Below are positions 1,604 through 31,813 of a DNA stretch of 31,813 nucleotides, piece after piece. The notes beneath the pieces are model-generated. The model had not been told where the DNA came from. It saw only the letters and a list, made by a program, of their open reading frames with translations, and searched no databases. The position numbers and the translations under genes are program-made. The DNA is from a virus: IMG/VR virus record IMGVR_UViG_3300045988_099307; one strand, written 5' to 3'. Each line of letters begins with the position of its first letter. Position 1 is the first letter of the stretch.

Positions 1604-3475
1604 ATGCAACTTACACACTCTATCGCGCTTGACTTTGGACGCGATACACTCCCTATTACGATTTTTGCAAAGCAGTACGACAAGGAGAGCCGCTTTGTTG
1701 AAATTGTGCCCCTCGAGTGCGGCAAGGATTACACGCTCGAAAGCGGAGTAACTGCTCGCTTGCAGCTTACAAAGCCCGACGGTCATACCGTACTCAAAAC
1801 GGCAACGATTGCAAACGGCGTTATCAAAGTCGAGCTCACGGAGCAAACGCTCGCCGTCGCGGGTACTGCCGTTGCGGAAATCGGGCTTTACAAGGGTAAC
1901 TCCCTTTTAAGCTCGCAAATTTTCTATATTGAAATTAAGCGAGCAGCTTATAACCCCGACGCACCCGCAAGCTCCGACGAATACCCCGCGTTAATTGACG
2001 CGCTCGGCAAGGTTGAAACCTCCGTAGGCTCTGCTAATTCCGCGGCAGCGGCAGCAAACGCAGCAGCAACGAAAGCGGAAACAGCGGCAGGCGGAGCCGA
2101 TACTGCCGCGCAAAACGCGACCTCGGCAGCGTCAGCGGCTAATAATGCCGCAAGCGGTGCAAATACCGCAAAAACGAACGCAAATAACGCAGCCTCCGCA
2201 GCGAATACCGCAGCGGGAGCGGCTAACTCTGCGGCAGCAGCAGCTAACGAGGCAGCAGAGGCAGCAGAGGGCGCGGAAAACGTTAATATCTCCGCTACGC
2301 AAACGACAACGGGAGCGGACATTACCGTTACCAACCGAGAGGGAGAACAAACGACCGTACATATTGACACGCTTACAGCGGTTAATACCTGGGAGGATAT
2401 TAAAAACGCCGTCCGCCTCGGACTCGGAGAAAAACTCTTTCCCGTTGGCTACGAGTTTACCACCCTCGACGCTGATACTACGCAAAATATTATATGGGTT
2501 GTGAGGGCGCACGACCACCATACAGCGGCAAATAATAAGCTCACGCATACAATGACGCTTGAAACAAAGAACGTTTACAGCTTGTCGAGCGGGGCGCAAA
2601 AGGCGGTACAGTACGACGCGACCGAGGCTTTTTATTTTGCGGAACTCGGACTCGCGGCGGGCACTTATAACATCACGATTGCAAATCAAGCCTGGTACAC
2701 CGCCGACAACGGCAAAACGTTTCAATTTGAGCTTACAAAGGCGCTCCCCGTGGGCGGTCAGCTCGTATTTGCTATGACCTATAACGCTACCCTCGAGGGC
2801 AAAAGCGTTAAAAGCTATGCAAATAAGACTACGACAACGGCACTTGAAACCGTTACTCTTACGGAGGGCTCCGAGGGTACAAGCCTCGGTACAACGAACG
2901 GGAGCAGCCCTAACGTAAACCATATGCACCGCGCTATTTTCGGCAGCAATAACTACGCTCAATCCGCCGTCCGTCAATGGCTTAATAGCGCCGCCGTAGC
3001 GGGCTCGGTTTGGACTCCTACTAACGTATTTGACCGTCCCGCGTCCTGGGCGACAAGCTATAACGGTTTTATGCACGGTTTGCCCGCTGACTTCCTGGCG
3101 GTTGTGCAGCCCGCCGTACTTGCTTGCCGTACAAATTCGCTCTTTGAGGTTGAAAGCCTCGACGGTACGGCTTTTGCTATCAATCAGCTTTACAGCCTTA
3201 AAGCGGATAAGTTTTTCCTACTCTCCCGCCCTGAAATTTTCGGGAATTGGGACAGCGAGAGTTACAAGGACGGTACGCAGCTCGAATATTATAACGGTTT
3301 GACGGCGACCGAGCGTATCAAACGCGACGCGGCGGGTACGGCGCGTTACGCTTGGTTGCGTTCTCCTAACCCGTCCAGCGCGATCAGCGCGCGCATTGTC
3401 TACTCCTCGGGCGAAGTGACCAACGACTGTGCGTACTACGGTCACGGCGTAGCCCCCGCTTGTATAATCGCATAA
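1604..3475 (+). CDS. DGR target protein 1: receptor-binding tail protein with a BppU-N-like N-terminus, an Ala/Asn-rich coiled coil, and a C-terminal lectin-fold (DUF6273/FGE-like) domain ending in VR1
   Basis: AGGAGG RBS before the ATG at 1604. The N-terminal 110 aa resemble a baseplate upper protein N-domain. The C-terminus ...YAWLRSPNPSSAISARIVYSSGEVTNDCAYYGHGVAPACIIA is homologous to the TR with adenine-only differences. Confidence 0.9.
   Translation: MQLTHSIALDFGRDTLPITIFAKQYDKESRFVEIVPLECGKDYTLESGVTARLQLTKPDGHTVLKTATIANGVIKVELTEQTLAVAGTAVAEIGLYKGNSLLSSQIFYIEIKRAAYNPDAPASSDEYPALIDALGKVETSVGSANSAAAAANAAATKAETAAGGADTAAQNATSAASAANNAASGANTAKTNANNAASAANTAAGAANSAAAAANEAAEAAEGAENVNISATQTTTGADITVTNREGEQTTVHIDTLTAVNTWEDIKNAVRLGLGEKLFPVGYEFTTLDADTTQNIIWVVRAHDHHTAANNKLTHTMTLETKNVYSLSSGAQKAVQYDATEAFYFAELGLAAGTYNITIANQAWYTADNGKTFQFELTKALPVGGQLVFAMTYNATLEGKSVKSYANKTTTTALETVTLTEGSEGTSLGTTNGSSPNVNHMHRAIFGSNNYAQSAVRQWLNSAAVAGSVWTPTNVFDRPASWATSYNGFMHGLPADFLAVVQPAVLACRTNSLFEVESLDGTAFAINQLYSLKADKFFLLSRPEIFGNWDSESYKDGTQLEYYNGLTATERIKRDAAGTARYAWLRSPNPSSAISARIVYSSGEVTNDCAYYGHGVAPACIIA
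2032..2285 (+). repeat. Low-complexity Ala/Asn/Thr-rich segment (putative trimeric coiled-coil stalk) inside target protein 1
   Basis: Translation is SANSAAAAANAAATKAETAAGGADTAAQNATSAASAANNAASGANTAKTNANNAASAANTAAGAANSAAAAANEAAEAAEGAE. The GCN-rich DNA also produces spurious long ORFs in other frames. Confidence 0.7.
3335..3463 (+). repeat. DGR variable repeat 1 (VR1)
   Basis: Ungapped alignment to TR 3962-4090 (offset 627) gives 12 mismatches in 129 positions, all at TR adenines: 3974, 4005, 4011, 4014, 4028, 4047, 4052, 4055, 4056, 4064, 4070, 4086. Confidence 0.93.
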
Positions 3476-3483
3476 TCGCAAAT

Positions 3484-3501
3484 CCGCCTCGGTAGAGGCG
3501 G
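3484..3501 (+). promoter_or_regulatory. GC hairpin 20 nt downstream of VR1 (candidate DGR target-recognition hairpin)
   Basis: ccgcctc-ggta-gaggcgg: 7-bp stem with a 4-nt loop and no T-run. The same motif follows VR2 and is absent after the TR. Confidence 0.65.
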
Positions 3502-3528
3502 GAAAAGCGATTAAAAGGAGGTTTTTAT

Positions 3529-3936
3529 ATGAGTGTGCGAAAAGGCGACCGCGGCGAGGGAAAACTGCAAGTGCTTAACAAAGCGCGGGAGCTCAAGAAA
3601 TACACCCTCGGGCTGATAAAATCGGAGAAACATTTTCCGAAGTCTACACGGTGGATATATGCCTCTCCGATAGTAAACGAAATACGGGAGGCGTGCGTAT
3701 GTATTCGGCACGCAAACTCCGTATTTGTAACAAACGACGAGGAGTACACATACCGCCGTATGGAGCAAGTCAAGGCACACGCGCACCTCGACGCTCTTTT
3801 AGACCTGGCGGACGACGCATACGACGCGGGCTACATATCGGGAAATCAAGTAGAGTATTGGACGGGCTTAATACTCAAAACCGACGACCTCTTGAAAGCC
3901 TGGATTAAGTCGGATAAAGAAAAATATCAAAAATAA
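3529..3936 (+). CDS. avd: Accessory variability determinant (Avd)-like four-helix-bundle protein
   Basis: A 135-aa basic helical protein located between the target gene and the TR/RT. It has an AGGAGG RBS and resembles the Avd / 23S rRNA-IVS protein family. Confidence 0.8.
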   Translation: MSVRKGDRGEGKLQVLNKARELKKYTLGLIKSEKHFPKSTRWIYASPIVNEIREACVCIRHANSVFVTNDEEYTYRRMEQVKAHAHLDALLDLADDAYDAGYISGNQVEYWTGLILKTDDLLKAWIKSDKEKYQK

Positions 3937-3961
3937 ATCATAGGGCGGTTACTATATTTGC

Positions 3962-4090
3962 GGTACGGCGCGTAACGCTTGGTTGCGTTCTCCTAACCCG
4001 TCCAACGCGAACAACGCGCGCATTGTCAACTCCTCGGGCGAAGTGAACAACAACAATGCGTACAACGGTAACGGCGTAGCCCCCGATTGT
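3962..4090 (+). repeat. DGR template repeat (TR), non-coding template RNA region
   Basis: The region is rich in AAC/AAT codons (the virtual translation reads RSPNPSNANNARIVNSSGEVNNNNAYNGNGVAPDC). It is the invariant partner of VR1 and VR2. It lies between avd and the RT with no RBS or start codon of its own. Confidence 0.93.
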
Positions 4091-4178
4091 GGGATTAGTC
4101 AGTATTCAAGTAGTCGAAAGACCAAAGCAGCACAGCTCACACAAGGAGCGACCGTCCTAACTCCGAAAGGAGGAAATA

Positions 4179-5279
4179 TTGCGGGCGACAAAGGTACCTC
4201 GCGGGGTAGTCCTTTTATATGCGTCCGCTTTTCTTATGGCATACGAGCAAGTAATTTCCTTTGATAATCTGTATAAAGGCTTAAAAGAGAGCTGCCGTAA
4301 TATCCGTTGGAAAGATAGCACCGTAGGATATGAGGGTAACGCGCTTAAAAATACCTATCGTTTGCGGCAAACGCTGCTTAACGGTACGTACAAAATAGAC
4401 CGATACCAACATTTCACGATATACGAGCCGAAACGTCGGGACATTGTAGCCACAAGGTTAAAAGACCGACAATTTCAGCGTTCGCTCTGCGACAACGGCT
4501 TTTATGAGCAGATTACAAAATCCTTTATAACAGATAATTGCGCTTGCCTCAAGGGGCGCGGCGTAGACTATACGCTAAACCGTATGACCGCACATCTGCG
4601 GCGGTATTATGCCGCGCACGGTTGCGACGGTTGGGTGCTTAAATGTGATATACGGCATTATTTCCAAAGCATACGGCACGACATAGCAAAGGCAGCAATA
4701 TGCAAGCGGGTTACAGATACTCAAATTGCGGAGCGGGCTTGCGAAATTGTGGACTCTTTCGGGGAAATCGGGTTAGGGCTCGGCTCCCAGGTATCGCAGC
4801 TTGTAGCTCTCGCCGTCCTGGACGACCTCGACCATTTCATAAAGGAGCGGTTGAGAATAAAGCATTATATCCGATATATGGACGACTTTATTTTAGTACA
4901 CGAGGACAAAGAGTATTTGCGGCAATGCAAAAAGGAAATCGAGGCGCGCCTATTCGCCCTCGGCTTACAGCTCAACGATAAAACGGCGCTTTACCCATTG
5001 CGCCAGGGAGTAAAGCTCCTACAATGGCGGTTTATCGTTACCGATACGGGCGCGATAATCCGCAAAATGGGTAAAAAGAAACAGAGCAAGCAGCGCCGCA
5101 AGCTCAAAAAGCTATACGCAAAAGAGCGCCGCGGAGAGTATGCGCCAGGGACGGCGCACGAGTCGCTCGTTTCCTGGCTTGCAAATGCCGCCCGCGGAGA
5201 TACCTACCACGAGCGGCTCAAAATGATAAATTATTTTAAGAATATGGAGGCTACATACAATGCAAGAGAATATCTATAA
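4179..5279 (+). CDS. DGR reverse transcriptase
   Basis: An IRYMDDFILV (YxDD) box and RT motifs (IYEPKRRDI, GLGLGSQVSQ) are present. A TTG start at 4179 sits 4-5 nt after AAAGGAGGA. An alternative ATG at 4236 (MAYEQVISFDNLYKGLKE) matches typical DGR RT N-termini. Confidence 0.92.
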   Translation: MRATKVPRGVVLLYASAFLMAYEQVISFDNLYKGLKESCRNIRWKDSTVGYEGNALKNTYRLRQTLLNGTYKIDRYQHFTIYEPKRRDIVATRLKDRQFQRSLCDNGFYEQITKSFITDNCACLKGRGVDYTLNRMTAHLRRYYAAHGCDGWVLKCDIRHYFQSIRHDIAKAAICKRVTDTQIAERACEIVDSFGEIGLGLGSQVSQLVALAVLDDLDHFIKERLRIKHYIRYMDDFILVHEDKEYLRQCKKEIEARLFALGLQLNDKTALYPLRQGVKLLQWRFIVTDTGAIIRKMGKKKQSKQRRKLKKLYAKERRGEYAPGTAHESLVSWLANAARGDTYHERLKMINYFKNMEATYNAREYL

Positions 5280-8742: not shown

Positions 8743-8925
8743 ATGATACAAACGAAAAGAGCAGACCTCATAAAGCTACTCGAAAAAAACGGTTGGTACT
8801 TAAAAAGAAACGGAGGCGGGCACGACATCTACACCAACGGAAAAGAGAGCGAAACAATCCCGAGGCACAGAGAATTAAAAGAAAATCTCGCAAGGGCAAT
8901 AATTAAAAGGCGGGGGCTCAAATGA
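8743..8925 (+). CDS. hicA: HicA-family toxin (mRNA interferase)
   Basis: A 60-aa protein: LIKLLEKNGWYLKRNGGGHDIYTNGK...IPRHRELKENLARAIIKRRGL, a typical HicA sequence. Confidence 0.85.
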   Translation: MIQTKRADLIKLLEKNGWYLKRNGGGHDIYTNGKESETIPRHRELKENLARAIIKRRGLK

Positions 8926-8974
8926 GCCCCACGCCGCCCGAGCTTAATATATATTTTATTGGAGGTAACTATAT

Positions 8975-9370
8975 ATGAAAAATTCATATCCTATTTTGCT
9001 TATACCCGAGGATAAGGGCTTTACGGTTTATATTCCCGATTTTGATATTAACACACAAGGCGAGGATTTAACCGACGCTATCGAAATGGCGCGGGACGCT
9101 ATCGGCTTAATGGGTATTGATATGGAGGACGACGGAAAAGCGCTGCCTACACCCCGCAAGCTCGATACTGTTAAAACGGCGCAAGGAGAAATCGTAACGC
9201 TTGTAGACGTTGACTTTGCAGAATATCGGCGCAAAAACGAAATGAGAGTAGTTAAGAAAAATTGCACTCTCCCGAGTTGGCTTTGCTATGCGGCAGAAAA
9301 GGCAAATATTAACTTTTCCCAGGCTTTACAAGAGGCACTCAAACGGGAATTGAAAATAACAGACAAATAA
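8975..9370 (+). CDS. hicB: HicB-family antitoxin with a C-terminal RHH-like DNA-binding tail
   Basis: YPILLIPEDKGFTVYIPDFDINTQGEDLTDAIEMARDAI is a HicB N-domain. The gene is adjacent to hicA and has a GGAGG RBS. Confidence 0.8.
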   Translation: MKNSYPILLIPEDKGFTVYIPDFDINTQGEDLTDAIEMARDAIGLMGIDMEDDGKALPTPRKLDTVKTAQGEIVTLVDVDFAEYRRKNEMRVVKKNCTLPSWLCYAAEKANINFSQALQEALKRELKITDK

Positions 9371-9385
9371 GCAAAAACACACTTT

Positions 9386-9426
9386 AGCCCGTCCCCTTTT
9401 GAGAGGGAGCGGGCTTTACTATTTTT
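9386..9426 (+). terminator. Probable terminator after hicB
   Basis: agcccgtcccc / gggagcgggct imperfect hairpin followed by a T-rich tract. Confidence 0.55.
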
Positions 9427-9429
9427 ATG

Positions 9430-9453
9430 ATAAAACGGAGTGATTTTATTATG
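9430..9453 (+). repeat. Gene-junction repeat, copy A (ataaaacggagtgattttAttatg)
   Basis: Shares ataaaacggagtgatttt and ttatg with copies B and C, and ends in the start codon of the transposase. Confidence 0.85.
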
Positions 9454-10497
9454 GGTACTTGCTACAACCACCTTACATTTACAGACCGTCTACAAATCGA
9501 GGCTTGGCAAAAAGCGGGCATAAGCAAGGCGCAAATGGCGGAGCTGCTCGGCGTGCATTTAAGCACTATATATCGGGAATTAAAGCGCGGAGTATATACA
9601 CGCCTCAACAGCGACTTAACCGAGGAGGAGCGATACAGCCCCGATATAGCCGAGGAGAAATACAGAGAAAACCTCAAGGCAAAGGGAGCAGGACTCAAAA
9701 TAGACCACGACCACGAATACGCTACATATCTTGAATACAAAGTATCGGCAGAAAAATACGCCCCTGGTGCTGTCCTCGGCGAAATAAAAAGAAAAGGTAT
9801 AGAATTTAATACCACCATTTCAAAAACGACTTTTTACCGATATATCGAGGACGGCGTTTTTCTCACGATAACAAACAAAGACCTACCCGTTAAATGCAAC
9901 AAAGACAAGCAGAAATACGATAGAGTAAAACCGAACAGGGCACCCGCGGGTAAAAGCATTGAAAAGCGCCCCGAGGAAGTCGCGGAGCGCGATACTTTCG
10001 GTCATTGGGAAATGGATTGCGTCGTAGGTAAAAAAGGCACAAAGAAAACTTTTCTTGTCCTTACCGAAAGATACAGCCGCTACGAGATTATCCGCATTAT
10101 GAAAGACCATACCGCCGCAAGTGTAATAAAAGCTCTTAACGGAATAGAGCGGAGCTACGGAGCGGGCTTGTTCTCAAAGGTTTTTCAAACTATAACCGTA
10201 GACAACGGCTCGGAATTTTCCGACTATGAGGGACTCGAGCAGAGCTGCCGCAAAAATGACTCACGCACAACGGTTTATTATTGCCACCCGTACAGCTCGT
10301 ACGAGCGCGGCTCAAATGAAAATCAAAATAAAATGGTGCGTCGTCATTATCCGAAAGGTATTAGCCTTGATAAAGTTACCCCCGCAGATACCCGAAAACT
10401 CGAAAAATGGATTAACGACTATCCGCGGGGAATTTTTGATTATTACAGCTCTGCGGACATATACGAGGCTTGCATAAACAGCATATTAGCCGCTTAA
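9451..10497 (+). CDS. IS30-family DDE transposase/integrase
   Basis: N-terminal HTH (LTFTDRLQIEAWQKAGISKAQMAELLGVHLSTIYRELKRG) and a DDE core (HWEMDCV...ITVDNGSEFS...YERGSNENQNKMVRR). The start at 9451 (MGTCYNHL) follows the junction repeat. Confidence 0.85.
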   Translation: MGTCYNHLTFTDRLQIEAWQKAGISKAQMAELLGVHLSTIYRELKRGVYTRLNSDLTEEERYSPDIAEEKYRENLKAKGAGLKIDHDHEYATYLEYKVSAEKYAPGAVLGEIKRKGIEFNTTISKTTFYRYIEDGVFLTITNKDLPVKCNKDKQKYDRVKPNRAPAGKSIEKRPEEVAERDTFGHWEMDCVVGKKGTKKTFLVLTERYSRYEIIRIMKDHTAASVIKALNGIERSYGAGLFSKVFQTITVDNGSEFSDYEGLEQSCRKNDSRTTVYYCHPYSSYERGSNENQNKMVRRHYPKGISLDKVTPADTRKLEKWINDYPRGIFDYYSSADIYEACINSILAA

Positions 10498-10541: not shown

Positions 10542-10570
10542 TTGACTTTTCAGTTAAAAAGTTTTACAAT
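10542..10570 (+). promoter_or_regulatory. Promoter-like element (TTGACT-17-TACAAT)
   Basis: ttgact at 10542-10547, a 17-nt spacer, tacaat at 10565-10570. It directly abuts the left arm of the following hairpin. Confidence 0.45.
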
Positions 10571-10715: not shown

Positions 10716-10747
10716 GCTCTCAAAACAAAATGAAAGGAGTAAACGTA

Positions 10748-11005
10748 ATGACGTGCCGATACCTCACATACGAGGACAGAAAGAGTCTCGAGGCTCTTTA
10801 CGCCGACAGCGTAAGCCTTACCGACATTGCCTCCGAGCTCGGAGTACACCTTGCCACCGTTTACAGAGAACTAACGCGCGGCGGCACGGGCGAACTTGAC
10901 AAAAACGGGCGTAGCGGTTACAGCGCCGCACTCGGTCAAAAGCGCGTTAGCGAGAATTTCAAACGCCGCGGCAGACGAGCGGCAAATAATAATAAAACGG
11001 AGTGA
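10748..11005 (+). CDS. Stand-alone IS30-type HTH (HTH_38-like) DNA-binding protein
   Basis: The start at 10748 lies 8 nt after AAAGGAG. CRYLTYEDRKSLEALYADSVSLTDIASELGVHLATVYRELTRG is paralogous to the transposase N-terminus. There is no DDE domain. Confidence 0.7.
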   Translation: MTCRYLTYEDRKSLEALYADSVSLTDIASELGVHLATVYRELTRGGTGELDKNGRSGYSAALGQKRVSENFKRRGRRAANNNKTE

Positions 11006-11017
11006 TTTTGTTATGAA
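10984..11017 (+). repeat. Gene-junction repeat, copy B (34 nt identical to copy C)
   Basis: aaataataataaaacggagtgattttgttatgaa contains the stop codon of the upstream gene (NNNKTE*), an RBS-like ggag, and the ATG of the downstream gene. Confidence 0.9.
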
Positions 11018-11243: not shown

Positions 11244-11791
11244 CAGAGCAAAAAGAGCGCCTCAAGAAACTATATGCCCTCGCCTTGCGCGGCGTTGGCG
11301 GCGAAAAAGAGCAAGCCCAGGCTATATTCGATAAATTACTTAAAAAATATGCTATGACGCTTGATGACCTCGACGACGAGGTTATACAAGAGTACGACCT
11401 CGAATATCACGGCAAAGAGCAAGACCGTATTTTAATGCAGACCGCATATAAAGTTACGGACGATAAAAACGCGTTTAACCACTTGCAATATAACCATAGC
11501 GGCAGAGCTTGCCGTACCCGCCTACGCGTGCGCTGCACCGCTGCTCAAAAGGCAGAGATAGAGTTTTTGTTTAGCTTTTATGTAAGGCTTTGGGAAAAAG
11601 AAAAAGAGGCTTTGTTACAAGCGTTTTTTCAAAAGCACCGAATTTTTGGAAATCTCAAAGACGGAGAAAGCGGAGCGGAGCTTTCTCCCGAGGAATTGTT
11701 AAAGCTCGAGCTTATGATGAAAGGGCTATCGGACGAACAGCCATTAAAGCAGCTCACGGACGGAGCAGAAAATAATAATAAAACGGAGTGA
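11240..11791 (+). CDS. Hypothetical protein with a DUF2786-like N-terminus
   Basis: GAGGAGG RBS. LKKLYALALRGVGGEKEQAQAIFDKLLKKY resembles DUF2786. The C-terminus ENNNKTE* is encoded by junction repeat C. Confidence 0.55.
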   Translation: MTEQKERLKKLYALALRGVGGEKEQAQAIFDKLLKKYAMTLDDLDDEVIQEYDLEYHGKEQDRILMQTAYKVTDDKNAFNHLQYNHSGRACRTRLRVRCTAAQKAEIEFLFSFYVRLWEKEKEALLQAFFQKHRIFGNLKDGESGAELSPEELLKLELMMKGLSDEQPLKQLTDGAENNNKTE

Positions 11792-11803
11792 TTTTGTTAT
11801 GAA
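11770..11803 (+). repeat. Gene-junction repeat, copy C
   Basis: Identical 34-mer to 10984-11017. Confidence 0.9.
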
Positions 11804-13087: not shown

Positions 13088-13771
13088 ATGAACGACAATA
13101 TTTTACGCGCTATTGAGTCGCTTTGCAACGATATAGCCACCAACACAAACGCAGAGGACAACCAAAAGAGAGCAAATGCAATTTTAGCTCTTGCTTTCGG
13201 CGGGATATTCACGCCCGAGGAAATTGAGGAGGACTACACCGAGGACGACTCCGCAGCGGGAGCGGAAAAAGATAAAATCAAATTCCCGAAACCTGGCGAG
13301 CAATTCGAGTATAACGGCATTAAGTTTACCGCTCTCGGAGAGGAGCAGGGCGGCGTACTTGCCATTGTCTCGGAATTACTCGAGGACGAAATGCCGCTCG
13401 ACGAAAGCAATAAAAACGACTGGCGCACCTCCTCGCTCCGTAAATACCTTAACGGAGAATACCTCGAACAATTCAACCGCGGCGACCTCCTCCCGTTTGT
13501 ATCGGACTTGACCTCCGACGACGGTATGAAAGACTACGGCACCGCCGAGGATTACGTTTTCCTCCTCTCGTGCGACCTTTACCGCAAATACAGAGAGTCC
13601 GTGCCGCGCTTTAATAATTGGTGGTGGACGCTTACGCCCTGGACTTGCAGCCCGTCCAGCGCGAGCTTCGCGCGCATTGTCCACTCCTCGGGCGAAGTGG
13701 GCTACAGCAGTGCGTACAACGGTAACGGCGTAGCCCCCGCTTGTCTGTTCAATCCTAAAATCTTTGAATAA
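13088..13771 (+). CDS. DGR target protein 2: small lectin-fold (DUF6273-like) protein with an acidic N-terminus, ending in VR2
   Basis: AAGGAG RBS. NDWRTSSLRKYLNGEYL...DYVFLLSCDLY...WWWTLTPW...ARIVHSSGEVGYSSAYNGNGVAPACLF is paralogous to the C-terminal domain of target 1. The last 96 nt of homology match the TR with adenine-only differences. Confidence 0.88.
   Translation: MNDNILRAIESLCNDIATNTNAEDNQKRANAILALAFGGIFTPEEIEEDYTEDDSAAGAEKDKIKFPKPGEQFEYNGIKFTALGEEQGGVLAIVSELLEDEMPLDESNKNDWRTSSLRKYLNGEYLEQFNRGDLLPFVSDLTSDDGMKDYGTAEDYVFLLSCDLYRKYRESVPRFNNWWWTLTPWTCSPSSASFARIVHSSGEVGYSSAYNGNGVAPACLFNPKIFE
13649..13744 (+). repeat. DGR variable repeat 2 (VR2), remote from the cassette
   Basis: Ungapped alignment to TR 3995-4090 (offset 9654) gives 12 mismatches, all at TR adenines: 3996, 4005, 4011, 4013, 4014, 4028, 4046, 4047, 4049, 4053, 4056, 4086. 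DNA homology to the TR stops upstream of 13649. Confidence 0.9.
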
Positions 13772-13772
13772 T

Positions 13773-13790
13773 CCGCCTCGATAGAGGCGA
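13773..13790 (+). promoter_or_regulatory. GC hairpin 28 nt downstream of VR2 (same motif as after VR1)
   Basis: aatccgcctcgAtagaggcgAgaaa compared with aatccgcctcgGtagaggcgGgaaa after VR1. Confidence 0.65.
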
Positions 13791-16250: not shown

Positions 16251-16414
16251 TATTGGCTTTGAAATGCAATTACCTTTTGAGGTTAGCGCAATTTTGTTAA
16301 TTCAAAGGTCGTCAGCGGCAAATGCTCGCTCGACAAATTCCCTTATGGAAAACTAAAGCGTTAAACCTCGGGGCTTGGGGCAGAGCCCCAAAAGGAAACA
16401 ACGGAGGTAAAACT

Positions 16415-17185
16415 ATGCGCTGTCTATACAGAGAAAAAATACATAAATGCGGCGAGTTTTTGGAAGTCGATATTTTCCCCGTTTTTGAATATCAGCGCGG
16501 GCGCAGCAAGAAAAGAAAACCGACAACGGAAACACAGCAGCGGCTAAACCAACGTAACGCCGAAAGAAAGCTCACGCGCCTACTGAACACGAATTTTACA
16601 AAGCACGATATACGCTTTGATTTAACATATAGCGACGAGAATTACCCTGAAACGCCCGAGAACGCACAACGGCAAATGCAAAATTTCCTCCGTCGCGTTA
16701 AGCGTTACCGCGCAAAGCATAATTTGCCCGAGCTTAAATACGTTGCCGTTACCGAGGTGGGAAAAGAAAACGGGCGACTGCACCACCATATCGTTATGAG
16801 CGGCGGCGTTGATATAAACACCCTTGCGGAAATATGGGGCAAAGGCTATACGACGGCAAAGCCGTTACAGTTTGACGAGTTCGGTATAACGGGCATTGCG
16901 GTATATCTCGTAAAAAGCCCGATACTCGGCAAGCGTTGGAGCGCGAGCCGCAACCTCGAGCAGCCGAAAACGTCCGAACGCGACGGCAGAATACCGCAGT
17001 ACAAAATACGCGAGTTTGGAAACAGCGGCAACGACAACCGCGCAGAGCTTGAGCGTCTTTATGAGGGCTACGCCCTGGCAGACTGCAAGCCGTATTACAA
17101 CGAAATCAACGGCGGCTATTATATAACCGTCCGTATGTATAAAAAGCCCGCTCCGAAACGGAGCAGAAAGCGAGGGAAACTATGA
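16415..17185 (+). CDS. HUH-superfamily rolling-circle replication initiator (Rep)-like protein
   Basis: The start at 16415 follows ACGGAGG. Motif I-like RFDLTYSDENYP, HUH motif GRLHHHIVMSG, motif III-like GIAVYLVKSP (Y..K). Confidence 0.6.
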   Translation: MRCLYREKIHKCGEFLEVDIFPVFEYQRGRSKKRKPTTETQQRLNQRNAERKLTRLLNTNFTKHDIRFDLTYSDENYPETPENAQRQMQNFLRRVKRYRAKHNLPELKYVAVTEVGKENGRLHHHIVMSGGVDINTLAEIWGKGYTTAKPLQFDEFGITGIAVYLVKSPILGKRWSASRNLEQPKTSERDGRIPQYKIREFGNSGNDNRAELERLYEGYALADCKPYYNEINGGYYITVRMYKKPAPKRSRKRGKL

Positions 17186-26086: not shown

Positions 26087-28270
26087 ATGGCAAGTATTTT
26101 TTCGGTTTTCGGAGAAATCCTTATCGACAATACAAACGCAGATAAAAGCATAGATACAACCACGAAAAAAGCCGAGAAAAGCAGTAAAGAGGTTGGCGTT
26201 TCTTTTTCGTCAATCGCTAAAGGTGCCGCCGCAGTAGGTACGGCGGTTGTAACGGGAGCGGCTGCTCTCGGCACAGCTGCTTATAAAATGGCAACCGACG
26301 TAGCGGACACGGCGGGCGCTATCGACGACGCGGCAAAGAAAGTAGGCACCTCGGCGGAGGAATACCAAAAATGGGCGTATGCCGCAAAGCTCGGAGGTAT
26401 GGAAACCTCAAAGCTCGAGGCGTTAATGGTAAAGCAGCAAAAGGCTTTTTCCGACGCAAAGGACGGCAGCGAGTCTATGTCGGAGGCTTACCAAAGACTC
26501 GGAGTAGATATATCCAAAATCGGAAACTCGGGCGACGCTTTCAATGAGGTTATAGCAAAGCTCGCGGATATGGAGGACGAAACCACCCGTAACGCACTTG
26601 CCAACGACATTTTCGGGAAAAGTTACGCAGACCTTGCGCCGTTGCTCGCGGAGGGCTCCGAGGGTATAGCCGCCTGGAAACAAGAGTGTGAGGACTTGGG
26701 CGGAGTAATGAGCGGCGATATGGTGGAGGCGGGCGCAGAGCTTGGCGACAGTATCGACCGTGTAAAAACTGCCTTTATGGGTATATTTAACTCGATAGGC
26801 TCGGCGGTTATTCCTATCGTAAAGCAGTTTGCAGACCTTATCGTATCGGCAATGCCTACGATACAAAGTATGTTTGCAAAACTTACGCCGATTATTACCG
26901 AGGTTTTCGAGCGGCTTATACCCCCGCTGTTTGAGCTGATACAAACTCTGTTCCCCGTGCTTATGGACTTAATAAGCTCGCTGCTGCCGCCGATTGAGTC
27001 TATTATTACGGCTATTCTGCCCGTAATAATCAATCTCATACAGCAGCTCGTGCCGTTTTTAATCCAAATAGTACAACAGATTTTGCCTATTGTCGTACAG
27101 CTCATAGAGGGGCTTATGCCTTTAATAACGGAAATCCTTAACACGGTATTACCCGTTATTATTCAGCTATTACAAGCGCTCTTGCCGCCTCTCATTGAGA
27201 TTATACAAGCGGTGCTCCCCGTAATAATTGAGCTTATACAGCTATTGCTCCCTCCGATTTTGCAAATAATCCAGGCAATCCTACCCGTTTTAATTAACCT
27301 CATAAATACGGTTATGCCGCTTTTAGTGCAGATTATCGAGGCGATATTGCCCGTAATCACTACGTTAATTGAAACGATTATACCGCCTATTTTAGAAATC
27401 GTGGAAATGATATTACCGATACTCACGGACTTACTTAATCAGCTTATGCCTATATTAACAAGTCTGCTCGAGGCGGTATTGCCCGTAATTATAAGCCTTA
27501 TAGAGCTTATAGCTCCTATTCTCAAACCGATACTTGAGCTTTTGTTTACGCTCCTCGAGCCTTTGCTCGACTTGCTTAACCTTATTCTCCCGCCGCTTAT
27601 CAGTCTTTTTACGGGGCTTATAAGTAAGGCTCTTACACCGCTTAAAGCGGCACTCGGGGTTGTGGCGGACGTATTGAATACGGTATTTAAGGGCGCATTT
27701 GAGGGTATCGGAAAAGTAGTAGGCAATATTAAAAACGTTTTCTCGGGTATTATCGACTTTGTAAAGAACGTTTTTACGGGTAACTGGCGCGGAGCCTGGG
27801 ACGCGGTAGTAAAGATATTCTCTAACATATTTGAGGGTATCAAAAACGCCTTTAAGGTGCCTATAAACTGGATTATTGACGGGCTTAACGTCTTTATTCG
27901 AGGACTTAACAAGCTCAAAATACCTGACTGGGTGCCAGGTATCGGCGGCAAAGGGTTAAACATAAAGGAAATATCCCGCCTCCGTATCGGTATGGAATAC
28001 GTGCCGTATGACGAATACCCCGCACTACTTCACAAAGGCGAGCGCGTGCTGACCGCAAGCGAAAACAAAGATTATACCAACCTCCAAAAAGCAGAAAAGA
28101 GCGCAGACAACGCCGAGGGCAAGTGTGTAATAAAAATCGAGTTCGGCGAAAAGTCAATTTACATTGACAGCCTCAAGGCTGAAAACCCCGACGACGTAAA
28201 CTCTTTTGTTGAGCTGCTGCTCGAGCTTATAGAGGAGAAAATAAGACGAAAGGGAGTTGTATTTGCGTAA
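26087..28270 (+). CDS. Tape measure protein
   Basis: 727 aa; located after G/GT; has a long helical repeat core. Confidence 0.9.
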   Translation: MASIFSVFGEILIDNTNADKSIDTTTKKAEKSSKEVGVSFSSIAKGAAAVGTAVVTGAAALGTAAYKMATDVADTAGAIDDAAKKVGTSAEEYQKWAYAAKLGGMETSKLEALMVKQQKAFSDAKDGSESMSEAYQRLGVDISKIGNSGDAFNEVIAKLADMEDETTRNALANDIFGKSYADLAPLLAEGSEGIAAWKQECEDLGGVMSGDMVEAGAELGDSIDRVKTAFMGIFNSIGSAVIPIVKQFADLIVSAMPTIQSMFAKLTPIITEVFERLIPPLFELIQTLFPVLMDLISSLLPPIESIITAILPVIINLIQQLVPFLIQIVQQILPIVVQLIEGLMPLITEILNTVLPVIIQLLQALLPPLIEIIQAVLPVIIELIQLLLPPILQIIQAILPVLINLINTVMPLLVQIIEAILPVITTLIETIIPPILEIVEMILPILTDLLNQLMPILTSLLEAVLPVIISLIELIAPILKPILELLFTLLEPLLDLLNLILPPLISLFTGLISKALTPLKAALGVVADVLNTVFKGAFEGIGKVVGNIKNVFSGIIDFVKNVFTGNWRGAWDAVVKIFSNIFEGIKNAFKVPINWIIDGLNVFIRGLNKLKIPDWVPGIGGKGLNIKEISRLRIGMEYVPYDEYPALLHKGERVLTASENKDYTNLQKAEKSADNAEGKCVIKIEFGEKSIYIDSLKAENPDDVNSFVELLLELIEEKIRRKGVVFA
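26880..27615 (+). repeat. About 22 tandem degenerate 33-nt (11-aa) repeats inside the TMP
   Basis: Units include LLPPLIEIIQA VLPVIIELIQL LLPPILQIIQA ILPVLINLINT VMPLLVQIIEA ILPVITTLIET and so on, with a conserved Pro at unit position 3-4. Confidence 0.8.
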
Positions 28271-31340: not shown

Positions 31341-31813
31341 ATGGCATTAAGCGGTAGTTTTTATAACTATCCCGTAAAATCATTCGGGCTATATTGTGAA
31401 TGGAGCGCAAGCCAAAGCGTTACGGGTAATTACAGCAATGTTACGCTGAAAGTTTACTTGTCTTACTGGGATTTATACGTAGGCGCAAGGGACGACGGCG
31501 TTATAAACATTGCGGGCAATTCGAGCAATTTTTCGACCGCAGCTATCAGCGAGTCCTCGAGCGGGTGGAAAAAGAAACTCATAGCGCAAAAGACCGTAAC
31601 AGTATATCACGACGGAAACGGCAACGCTAATTGTTACCTCGGCGCCTCCTGGCGATTTAGCGGCACATACTCGGGTACATCTATCGGGACGATTACGGCG
31701 GAGCAAACCGTTTCTCTCGATAAGTTAGACCGTTCGGCTCCGTCTATCAGCATAAGCGTATCAGACATAACGGCAAACTCCGTAAAGCTCTCTGCCTCCG
31801 CGTCTACAACGTG
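31341..31813 (+). CDS. Tail fibre protein, 5' part (continues through the circular junction into 78-1587)
   Basis: AAGGAGG RBS. Translates to MALSGSFYNYPVKSFGLYCEWSASQSV... and is open to the window end. It is in frame with 1-1587 through the 77-bp overlap, giving about 660 aa in total. Confidence 0.75.
   Translation, partial: MALSGSFYNYPVKSFGLYCEWSASQSVTGNYSNVTLKVYLSYWDLYVGARDDGVINIAGNSSNFSTAAISESSSGWKKKLIAQKTVTVYHDGNGNANCYLGASWRFSGTYSGTSIGTITAEQTVSLDKLDRSAPSISISVSDITANSVKLSASASTT
31737..31813. repeat. Terminal direct repeat, identical to 1-77
   Basis: Exact 77-nt identity with the window start. Confidence 0.95.

Follow-up and report, generated by a model that had tools for sequence, protein, structure and literature searches.

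A probable diversity-generating retroelement with one template and two DUF6273 targets in a temperate phage of the human gut

The subject here is a diversity-generating retroelement (DGR) in a 31,813-nucleotide stretch of viral DNA, IMG/VR record IMGVR_UViG_3300045988_099307 (the window, meaning the whole stretch), which appears to combine one template with two targets. The prototype DGR is that of Bordetella phage BPP-1, in which mtd with its variable repeat (VR) is followed by avd, the template repeat (TR), a spacer (Sp) and brt, the reverse transcriptase (RT) gene (PMC6182149, PMC7826257). In BPP-1, the TR pairs with Sp next to the priming adenosine, Sp A56 (PMC6182149; bioRxiv 10.1101/2023.10.23.563531). 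The RTs of DGRs carry the signature [I/V/L]GxxxSQ in place of QGxxxSP (PMC7826257).

Two-target DGRs have been described in several gut phages. The Faecalibacterium phages Lelie and Toutatis and the prophage CP11 are temperate phages of gut Oscillospiraceae whose DGRs have two VRs, one in a large and one in a small target (PMC11792537). Adenine-specific variation across genomes has been published for CP11, and the same two-target layout is mentioned for Roseburia phage Shimadzu (PMC11792537). In gut phages nd4 and nd12 also, one TR serves two different DUF6273 targets, 'tentaclin' and tgt2 (PMC10743442). DUF6273 occurs as well as the domain at the N-terminus of the immunoglobulin A (IgA) peptidase of Thomasclavelia ramosa (PDB 9qa6; PMC12402451).

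The window most probably encodes a functional DGR with one template and two targets, in a temperate siphovirus-like phage of gut Oscillospiraceae/Ruminococcaceae; judged from sequence, the probability of this reading is roughly 0.93. It is carried by TR/VR differences confined to adenines, an RT of the DGR clade, an accessory protein and an in-frame, AAC-rich TR, together with distinct elements at the VR ends, pairing of the spacer with the TR 3' end, and turnover of the VRs beside a near-invariant TR. On comparative evidence the element is apparently active. The original prediction had placed a complete cassette of VR1, hairpin, avd, TR and RT at 3335-5279, in the tail-fibre module. Each of these parts is present and passes its family test, and the core cassette does lie in that module. 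However, the system reaches further, to a second VR in a target encoded elsewhere (Table 1), and neither this second target nor the spacer RNA figured in the prediction. The gene order of the core (target-VR, avd, TR, a spacer of ~140 nt, RT) is that of BPP-1 (PMC6182149, PMC7826257), and the two systems share adenine-specific TR/VR differences, an AAC-rich template and pairing between the TR 3' end and the spacer. Unlike BPP-1, the cassette-linked target is a BppU_N plus DUF6273 protein and not Mtd-like, the Avd has diverged beyond direct matching, a second target lies remote from the cassette, and the host is a Gram-positive gut anaerobe.

A repeat search and a base-by-base comparison align TR and VR1 over 129 nt without a gap, with 12 mismatches (91% identity). 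The earlier claim that all of these lie at TR adenines was reproduced to the base, with the same coordinates and substitutions: A to T at 3974, 4011, 4028, 4055 and 4064, A to G at 4005, 4014, 4052 and 4056, and A to C at 4047, 4070 and 4086. There is no mismatch at a non-adenine position. Given 31 adenines among the 129 TR bases, the hypergeometric probability of 12/12 is P = 5.4e-9. In VR2 also, 12 of the 12 mismatches fall on TR adenines (P = 4.9e-8). Both VRs share the reading frame of the TR, and each stands at the 3' end of the open reading frame (ORF) of its target. The TR, rightly described before as packed with AAC codons, has 11 AAC codons and one AAT in the target frame, and 29 of its 31 adenines occupy codon positions 1 or 2. 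A codon check in that frame found no TR adenine whose substitution could produce a stop codon. The theoretical protein diversity obtainable from this template is ~4e16 for VR1 and ~7e14 for VR2.

The behavior of the repeats among relatives points the same way. Scans with the RT protein yielded 8 viral contigs and 7 prophages in metagenome-assembled genomes of Oscillospiraceae/Ruminococcaceae, with RTs 98-100% identical, and TR and VR1 were compared in the 13 copies that hold both repeats. All 13 have the same TR, or very nearly the same, and each distinct phage copy has a VR1 of its own; L004 and L084, which are identical, represent the same phage seen twice. TR/VR1 differences lie at a TR adenine in 174 of 180 cases. 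A population test had been proposed with the original prediction, and in this cross-genome version of it the variation is, as predicted, almost confined to the TR-adenine columns. Where a TR has itself acquired non-adenine changes, these are present in its own VR1, as seen with a block (GGAC..TACGT) in L004/L084 and with C17A and C78A in L083. Such mirroring shows templated transfer from TR to VR. VR2 was missing from the first set of prophage loci because the prophage ends at ~10552, which puts VR2 at the other end of the integrated element. The VR2 loci of 11 relatives were fetched separately through the target 2 protein (12 VR2 copies compared). Their flanks are conserved and their variation is concentrated at the TR-adenine columns, and the VR2 of L163 carries the variant-TR block. 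Genomes that are 97-99% identical in the flanks carry different VRs, implying very recent turnover. In public data, both targets fall into hundreds of distinct clusters at 90% identity, many of them with a single member.

The RT matches RVT_1 (1.1e-11) and phrog_1423 (1.5e-105) and has the motifs LGSQVSQ at 182 and YMDD at 214. Its best match among solved structures, PDB 8ub7_A (E = 1.4e-22), extends over the full length (residues 4-324), and that chain is the Brt of BPP-1, being 100% identical to brt of NC_005357. The alignment with Brt includes [I/V/L]GxxxSQ, YMDD and the equivalent of R74 of bRT, which is conserved as Arg in the sequence EPKRR; I181 of bRT is replaced by Leu, as the signature allows. 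The RT with a YMDD box noticed originally is accordingly one with both catalytic and DGR signature motifs. Among its homologues in phages are those of established DGR phages, namely Bordetella, Vibrio VP585, Faecalibacterium Toutatis, Lelie and Brigit, and nd4/nd12. The first start of the ORF, TTG 4179 (after AGGAGG), was rejected as the RT start, since it is not conserved and lies in a region with RNA-type covariation and no codon-type conservation; ATG 4236 is aligned in all relatives and is taken as the start. The Avd-like gene that the prediction had seen beside the TR matches phrog_3206, 'Avd protein of DGR', over its full length (3.1e-31). Among 24 homologues encoded at the corresponding position of related loci, 13 match the NCBIfam model DivGenRetAVD (best 1.2e-12) and seven match Pfam bAvd. 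A PDB sequence search with the Avd, either as a single sequence or as the 24-sequence profile, found nothing.

The ends of the repeats differ in a way that may set donor and recipient apart. Both VRs end in the same 18-mer, GGCGTAGCCCCCGCTTGT, and the TR ends in GGCGTAGCCCCCGATTGT, which differs by one A/C. The VR1 end is conserved in relatives. By analogy with the initiation of mutagenic homing (IMH) element of BPP-1, the VR 3' ends probably serve as IMH and the TR end as its IMH* counterpart. The differing base, column 125 (A4086), is C in 13/13 VR1s and in every VR2 where the column is present, and the change is therefore a fixed TR/VR difference of the IMH*/IMH type. Mutagenesis, which the original prediction took as the source of all the listed mismatches, does not account for this one. 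Each VR is followed by a GC hairpin with a 4-nt loop, contained in a 19-nt motif, ATCCGCCTCGRTAGAGGCG. The genome holds precisely two copies of this motif, one after each VR, and the TR lacks a hairpin of this kind. Folded as DNA, the hairpin after VR1 reaches -9 kcal/mol (z = -4.2); the one after VR2 has z = -4.4. In the diverged relatives L037, L041 and L093, the stem is kept by compensatory changes. BPP-1, too, has an IMH-type end rich in GC and, after the VR, a GC hairpin whose loop is 4 nt long. However, TR and VR differ here by a single base rather than by the multi-base IMH/IMH* difference of BPP-1, and the hairpin stands 20-29 nt from the VR end.

The spacer between TR and RT appears to be a structured non-coding RNA. 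In an alignment of 17 diverse relatives, with RT identity down to ~46%, the consensus has 30 pairs, with 96.7% of cells paired and compensatory double changes at 19 pairs. The covariation score was reached by 0/500 shuffles, and slid controls all scored far lower. The sequence between TTG 4179 and ATG 4236 varies in the manner of an RNA and not of codons. The predicted structure has, in sum, strong covariation support; at gathering thresholds Rfam contains no family for it. Helix 1, which joins the TR 3' end to an invariant CTCACA, parallels the TR-Sp pairing of BPP-1.

Table 1. Coordinates of the DGR features in the window
Feature	Position	Strand	Description
Target 1	1604..3475	+	623-aa tail-fibre/receptor-binding protein; BppU_N as anchor, stalk rich in Ala, DUF6273 at the C-terminus
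VR1	3335..3463	+	129 nt; 43 codons at the end of target 1 (residues 578-620)
IMH-like 3' end of VR1	3446..3463	+	GGCGTAGCCCCCGCTTGT; GC-rich tract + CTTGT
Hairpin after VR1	3484..3501	+	CCGCCTC-GGTA-GAGGCGG; 20 nt past VR end
avd	3529..3936	+	135-aa accessory variability determinant
TR	3962..4090	+	129 nt; AAC-rich
IMH*-like 3' end of TR	4073..4090	+	GGCGTAGCCCCCGATTGT; A4086 differs from both VRs
Spacer (Sp-like) non-coding RNA	4091..4235	+	145 nt between TR and RT
Spacer helix 1	4088-4093/4136-4141	+	TR 3' end and first spacer bases with invariant CTCACA
Other spacer helices	4098-4099/4132-4133, 4113-4115/4120-4122, 4156-4158/4168-4170		
Other spacer helices	4182-4187/4222-4227, 4190-4200/4203-4215		
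DGR reverse transcriptase	4236..5279	+	347 aa
Target 2	13088..13771	+	227-aa small DUF6273 protein, early/replication region
VR2	13649..13744	+	96 nt; TR positions 34-129, same frame; residues 188-219
IMH-like 3' end of VR2	13727..13744	+	identical to that of VR1
Hairpin after VR2	13774..13789	+	CGCCTC-GATA-GAGGCG; 29 nt past VR end

Homing at this locus is believed to follow the BPP-1 paradigm. A transcript comprising the avd 3' end, the TR and the spacer would fold such that the TR 3' end (TGTGGG) pairs with the spacer CTCACA. The RT-Avd complex would then prime complementary DNA (cDNA) from a nearby spacer adenosine, copy the TR and misincorporate opposite adenines. The priming nucleotide is predicted to lie within CTCACACAAGG (4136-4146), with templating expected to begin at G4085 or 5' of it; priming just 3' of helix 1 and copying from at or before G4085 would explain why column 125 is invariant. 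The comparisons among relatives show that the adenine-mutagenized copy replaces VR1, in the tail-fibre tip, and independently VR2, in the tip of the small protein 9.6 kb away. The recipients would be marked by their identical GC-rich IMH-like end, which reads CTTGT where the TR reads ATTGT, and by the hairpin that both have downstream. Since the TR lacks both marks, transfer would be one-way, leaving the TR as donor, as in BPP-1.

Target 1 matches Pfam BppU_N (1.1e-10, residues 18-128) and DUF6273 (4.7e-15, residues 439-622; 56.3 bits vs a gathering cutoff of 23.5), and its N-terminal part has PHROG tail-fibre matches. The genes directly before it encode Dit, Tal and a DUF859 tail protein. Of the modular receptor-binding protein originally proposed, the BppU_N anchor and the Ala-rich stalk are thus borne out, and the likely benefit of diversifying its tip would be re-targeting of host or ligand binding. 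The stalk (~2020-2290, residues ~140-230) is Ala/Asn-rich and internally repetitive (repeat families D3 and D10-D12). In near-identical relatives, target 1 comes to 545, 574, 585 and 623 aa, a spread suggesting that the repeat number varies, which would make the fibre longer or shorter. ARAGORN also reports a tRNA-Thr (TGT) of 92 nt within the target 1 coding region (2827-2918, minus strand); lying inside an ORF and having no Rfam tRNA match at the gathering threshold, it is probably a false positive.

The fold of the variable domain was approached mainly through target 2. An AlphaFold2 model of the C-terminal 371 aa of target 1 had a predicted local distance difference test (pLDDT) score of 34.5 and was not used, the alignment being too shallow with homologues all at least 74% identical, and a PDB sequence search with target 1 found nothing. 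The target 2 model (pLDDT 77.6) has two N-terminal helices, an acidic disordered linker and a globular domain, with the VR2-encoded residues in a beta-hairpin (strands 194-198 and 204-208). In nd4/nd12 also, the VR-encoded part is predicted to form a beta-hairpin. A Foldseek search with the model returned a single solved structure at a significant score, that of the T. ramosa IgA peptidase (E = 2.7e-7), along with many phage DUF6273 models. The peptidase shares the Pfam domain with target 2, but it is a secreted M64 metallopeptidase that is neither DGR-diversified nor of phage origin.

Several observations weigh against the picture of a typical and currently active DGR. Activity in this genome is judged from comparison across genomes and not from reads, and the read-level analysis of Lelie and CP11 in culture found no variation signaling activity (PMC11792537). 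Six of the 180 TR/VR1 differences lie off adenine, four of them in L001, whose VR1 (9101-9229) differs from its own TR at columns 33, 70, 71 and 100, the most non-adenine differences of any copy; point mutation, chimeric assembly of a mixed population and non-adenine errors of the RT are possible causes. The Avd itself scores below the 80-bit cutoff of DivGenRetAVD (1.1e-4, 22.5 bits), and direct comparison of its profile with the BPP-1 Avd by hhalign was not significant; together with the homologues that do match the family, this indicates a diverged Avd. The roles given to the priming site, the hairpin and the A/C difference are put forward solely by analogy. Carbohydrate recognition domains of C-type lectins recur in the Foldseek list for target 2 only at E ~2-4, and the match of the target 2 profile to Mtd by hhalign was not significant (E = 0.24), so the lectin fold (CLec) originally proposed for the variable tip may be regarded as only indirectly supported. 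The silence of the analogous Lelie and CP11 in culture would also fit a DGR that was recently inactivated, the VR diversity of relatives recording past activity with no homing now in this genome. This we consider unlikely, as every ORF is undamaged and keeps its catalytic and signature motifs, the same integrity holds for the TR, the hairpins, the IMH-like ends and the spacer helices, and different VRs in near-identical flanks speak for very recent turnover.

The second target extends the active, two-target reading beyond the tail. The repeat search had found a third, partial copy near 13616-13744, whose templated part was trimmed to VR2; it forms the C-terminal end of the target 2 ORF. Target 2 matches Pfam DUF6273 (PF19789; 2.6e-8, 34.4 bits vs a gathering cutoff of 23.5) and phrog_9958 (1.2e-65), and has 643 homologues in public data. 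By tblastn, it finds homologues in nd12 (38%, 2e-23), nd4 (34%, 1e-21), Lelie (32%, 1e-13) and Toutatis (31%). Target 2 has a single domain and a C-terminal VR and is encoded far from the RT, which is the profile of a small, remote DUF6273 second target. A search of the genome found no third VR, third IMH or third hairpin.

In Lelie and CP11, as here, both targets are DUF6273 proteins with a C-terminal VR and the small target lies far from the RT; in Lelie, moreover, a homologous Rep gene is found ~3 kb downstream of the small target, as in the window. The RT and the small target are only 31-39% identical to the proteins of these Faecalibacterium phages, and there is no nucleotide similarity. 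The genome is 31.7 kb here vs 53-55 kb in the Faecalibacterium phages, and an IS30-type DDE enzyme stands in place of the phiC31-like integrase of Lelie (PMC11792537). In nd4 and nd12, tgt2 is likewise a small, single-domain protein with flanking helices, homologous to target 2, and the nd12 RT is 41% identical to the one here. However, in their large target the VR is near the 5' end, with an N-terminal DUF6273 followed by Ig-like domains, whereas here a C-terminal VR is borne on a BppU_N-anchored fibre.

Could VR2 be an accidental recipient that is merely tolerated, a stray VR 3' end and hairpin having recombined into an unrelated early gene? At 96 nt, VR2 falls short of the 129 nt of VR1, BLASTP finds no similarity between the two targets outside the templated stretch, and the target 2 gene is among the early and not the structural genes. 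However, target 2 has a DUF6273 domain of its own with VR2 in frame at the domain C-terminus, its family is conserved in the 643 homologues, and nd12, nd4, Lelie and Toutatis, divergent as these phages are, again have a DGR-linked small DUF6273 target (PMC10743442, PMC11792537). The VR2s of relatives, besides, contain no stop codons and no frameshifts. Such an accident seems very improbable. That the repeats arose by ordinary duplication or gene conversion with a coincidental adenine bias, the RT being that of a retron, a group II intron or a defence system, as its sub-threshold NCBIfam matches to group II intron, retron and Drt RT models might suggest, has a negligible chance of being right given the adenine-confined mismatches at both VRs, the cross-genome VR pattern, the DGR-specific LGxxxSQ, the adjacent Avd, Brt as the best structural relative, and a search that found neither maturase nor intron RNA and no Rfam retron or group II match.

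The window is a circular 31.7-kb assembly in which bases 1-77 are repeated exactly at 31737-31813. Such a 77-nt terminal direct repeat is consistent with a circular or terminally redundant assembly, and a tail gene spanning the contig ends is unbroken in related loci. The genes run from terminase, portal, capsid and tape measure through Dit, Tal, the DUF859 tail protein and target 1 to avd-TR-RT, followed by a gene resembling fibre-assembly chaperones, lysis genes (Amidase_2, SPOR and CW_7 domains), HicAB, an IS30-type DDE transposase and the prophage end. Past that end come the early genes, with target 2 among them, and then an SLT transglycosylase and a Rep of the rolling-circle type. Homology of prophages to the window stops at the prophage end, so that integration places VR2 at the opposite prophage end, ~22 kb upstream of the TR. 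When 12 kb of the window was compared with GenBank phages by Megablast, the only match was 71 nt long; the phage is not among the GenBank phage records.

Other features of the genome were noted in passing. The transposase (HTH_38 + rve, 9427-10497) is the only recombinase beside the prophage end, and a stand-alone HTH_38 paralogue (10730-11005) lies just across the junction (~10545-10570). Five prophage copies all end at ...CTTGACTTTTCA (~10552) with unrelated host flanks, and the junction of the circular form, ACTTTTCA-GT-TAAAAAGT, is a short imperfect inverted repeat with a 2-nt spacer that recalls IS30 circle junctions. Together these suggest transposase-mediated integration without a fixed attachment site. 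A 41-nt stretch with ribosome-binding site and start codon is 95% identical before two neighbouring early genes (10977-11017 and 11763-11803; family D7), with a weaker third copy before the transposase gene (9415-9455); these copies might represent a regulatory or translation-initiation element in common, or mark a seam left by recombination. The HicA toxin/HicB antitoxin pair (8743-9370), between the lysis genes and the transposase, is in a typical moron position. The tape-measure gene has direct repeats spaced by multiples of 66 nt (27002-27506; families D2 and D4), an ordinary tape-measure periodicity. The replication initiator (16322-17185) belongs to the rolling-circle ORF2/G2P type (PF23343, phrog_3584), in a genome that is siphovirus-like in other respects.

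The layout of one large and one small DUF6273 target is already published for Lelie, CP11, nd4 and nd12, and general knowledge of DGRs is unchanged by this locus. The present analysis contributes a second target, a fixed IMH-type base and the exact RT start, along with the duplicated hairpin and a spacer RNA supported by covariation. The position of target 2 invites a more tentative proposal. It has no signal peptide, it belongs to the replication/early module ~2.5 kb from the prophage end, and its placement relative to Rep is kept in Lelie; these features prompt the reading that it might be a non-virion, early and possibly lysogen-expressed soluble DUF6273 binder, diversified for a purpose beyond adsorption, with a ligand such as a variable host or competitor molecule. 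Taken jointly with a separate suggestion, that the spacer RNA represents a DGR RNA family not yet in Rfam whose priming site would be predictable, adjoining the TGTGGG/CTCACA helix, this is a possibility that we think rather less likely than not.

The locus offers a clean natural case of a DGR in which one template serves two targets, in a human-gut prophage lineage that is very common and has thousands of public member sequences. Its cis elements are mapped to the base, with two VRs that have different 5' limits and a one-base mark of TR/VR directionality, and this could help in the design of compact DGR tools. It also provides a comparative system for how one cDNA reaches two loci 9.6 kb apart (22 kb in the prophage), and bears on the function of the recurrent small, apparently non-structural DUF6273 target.

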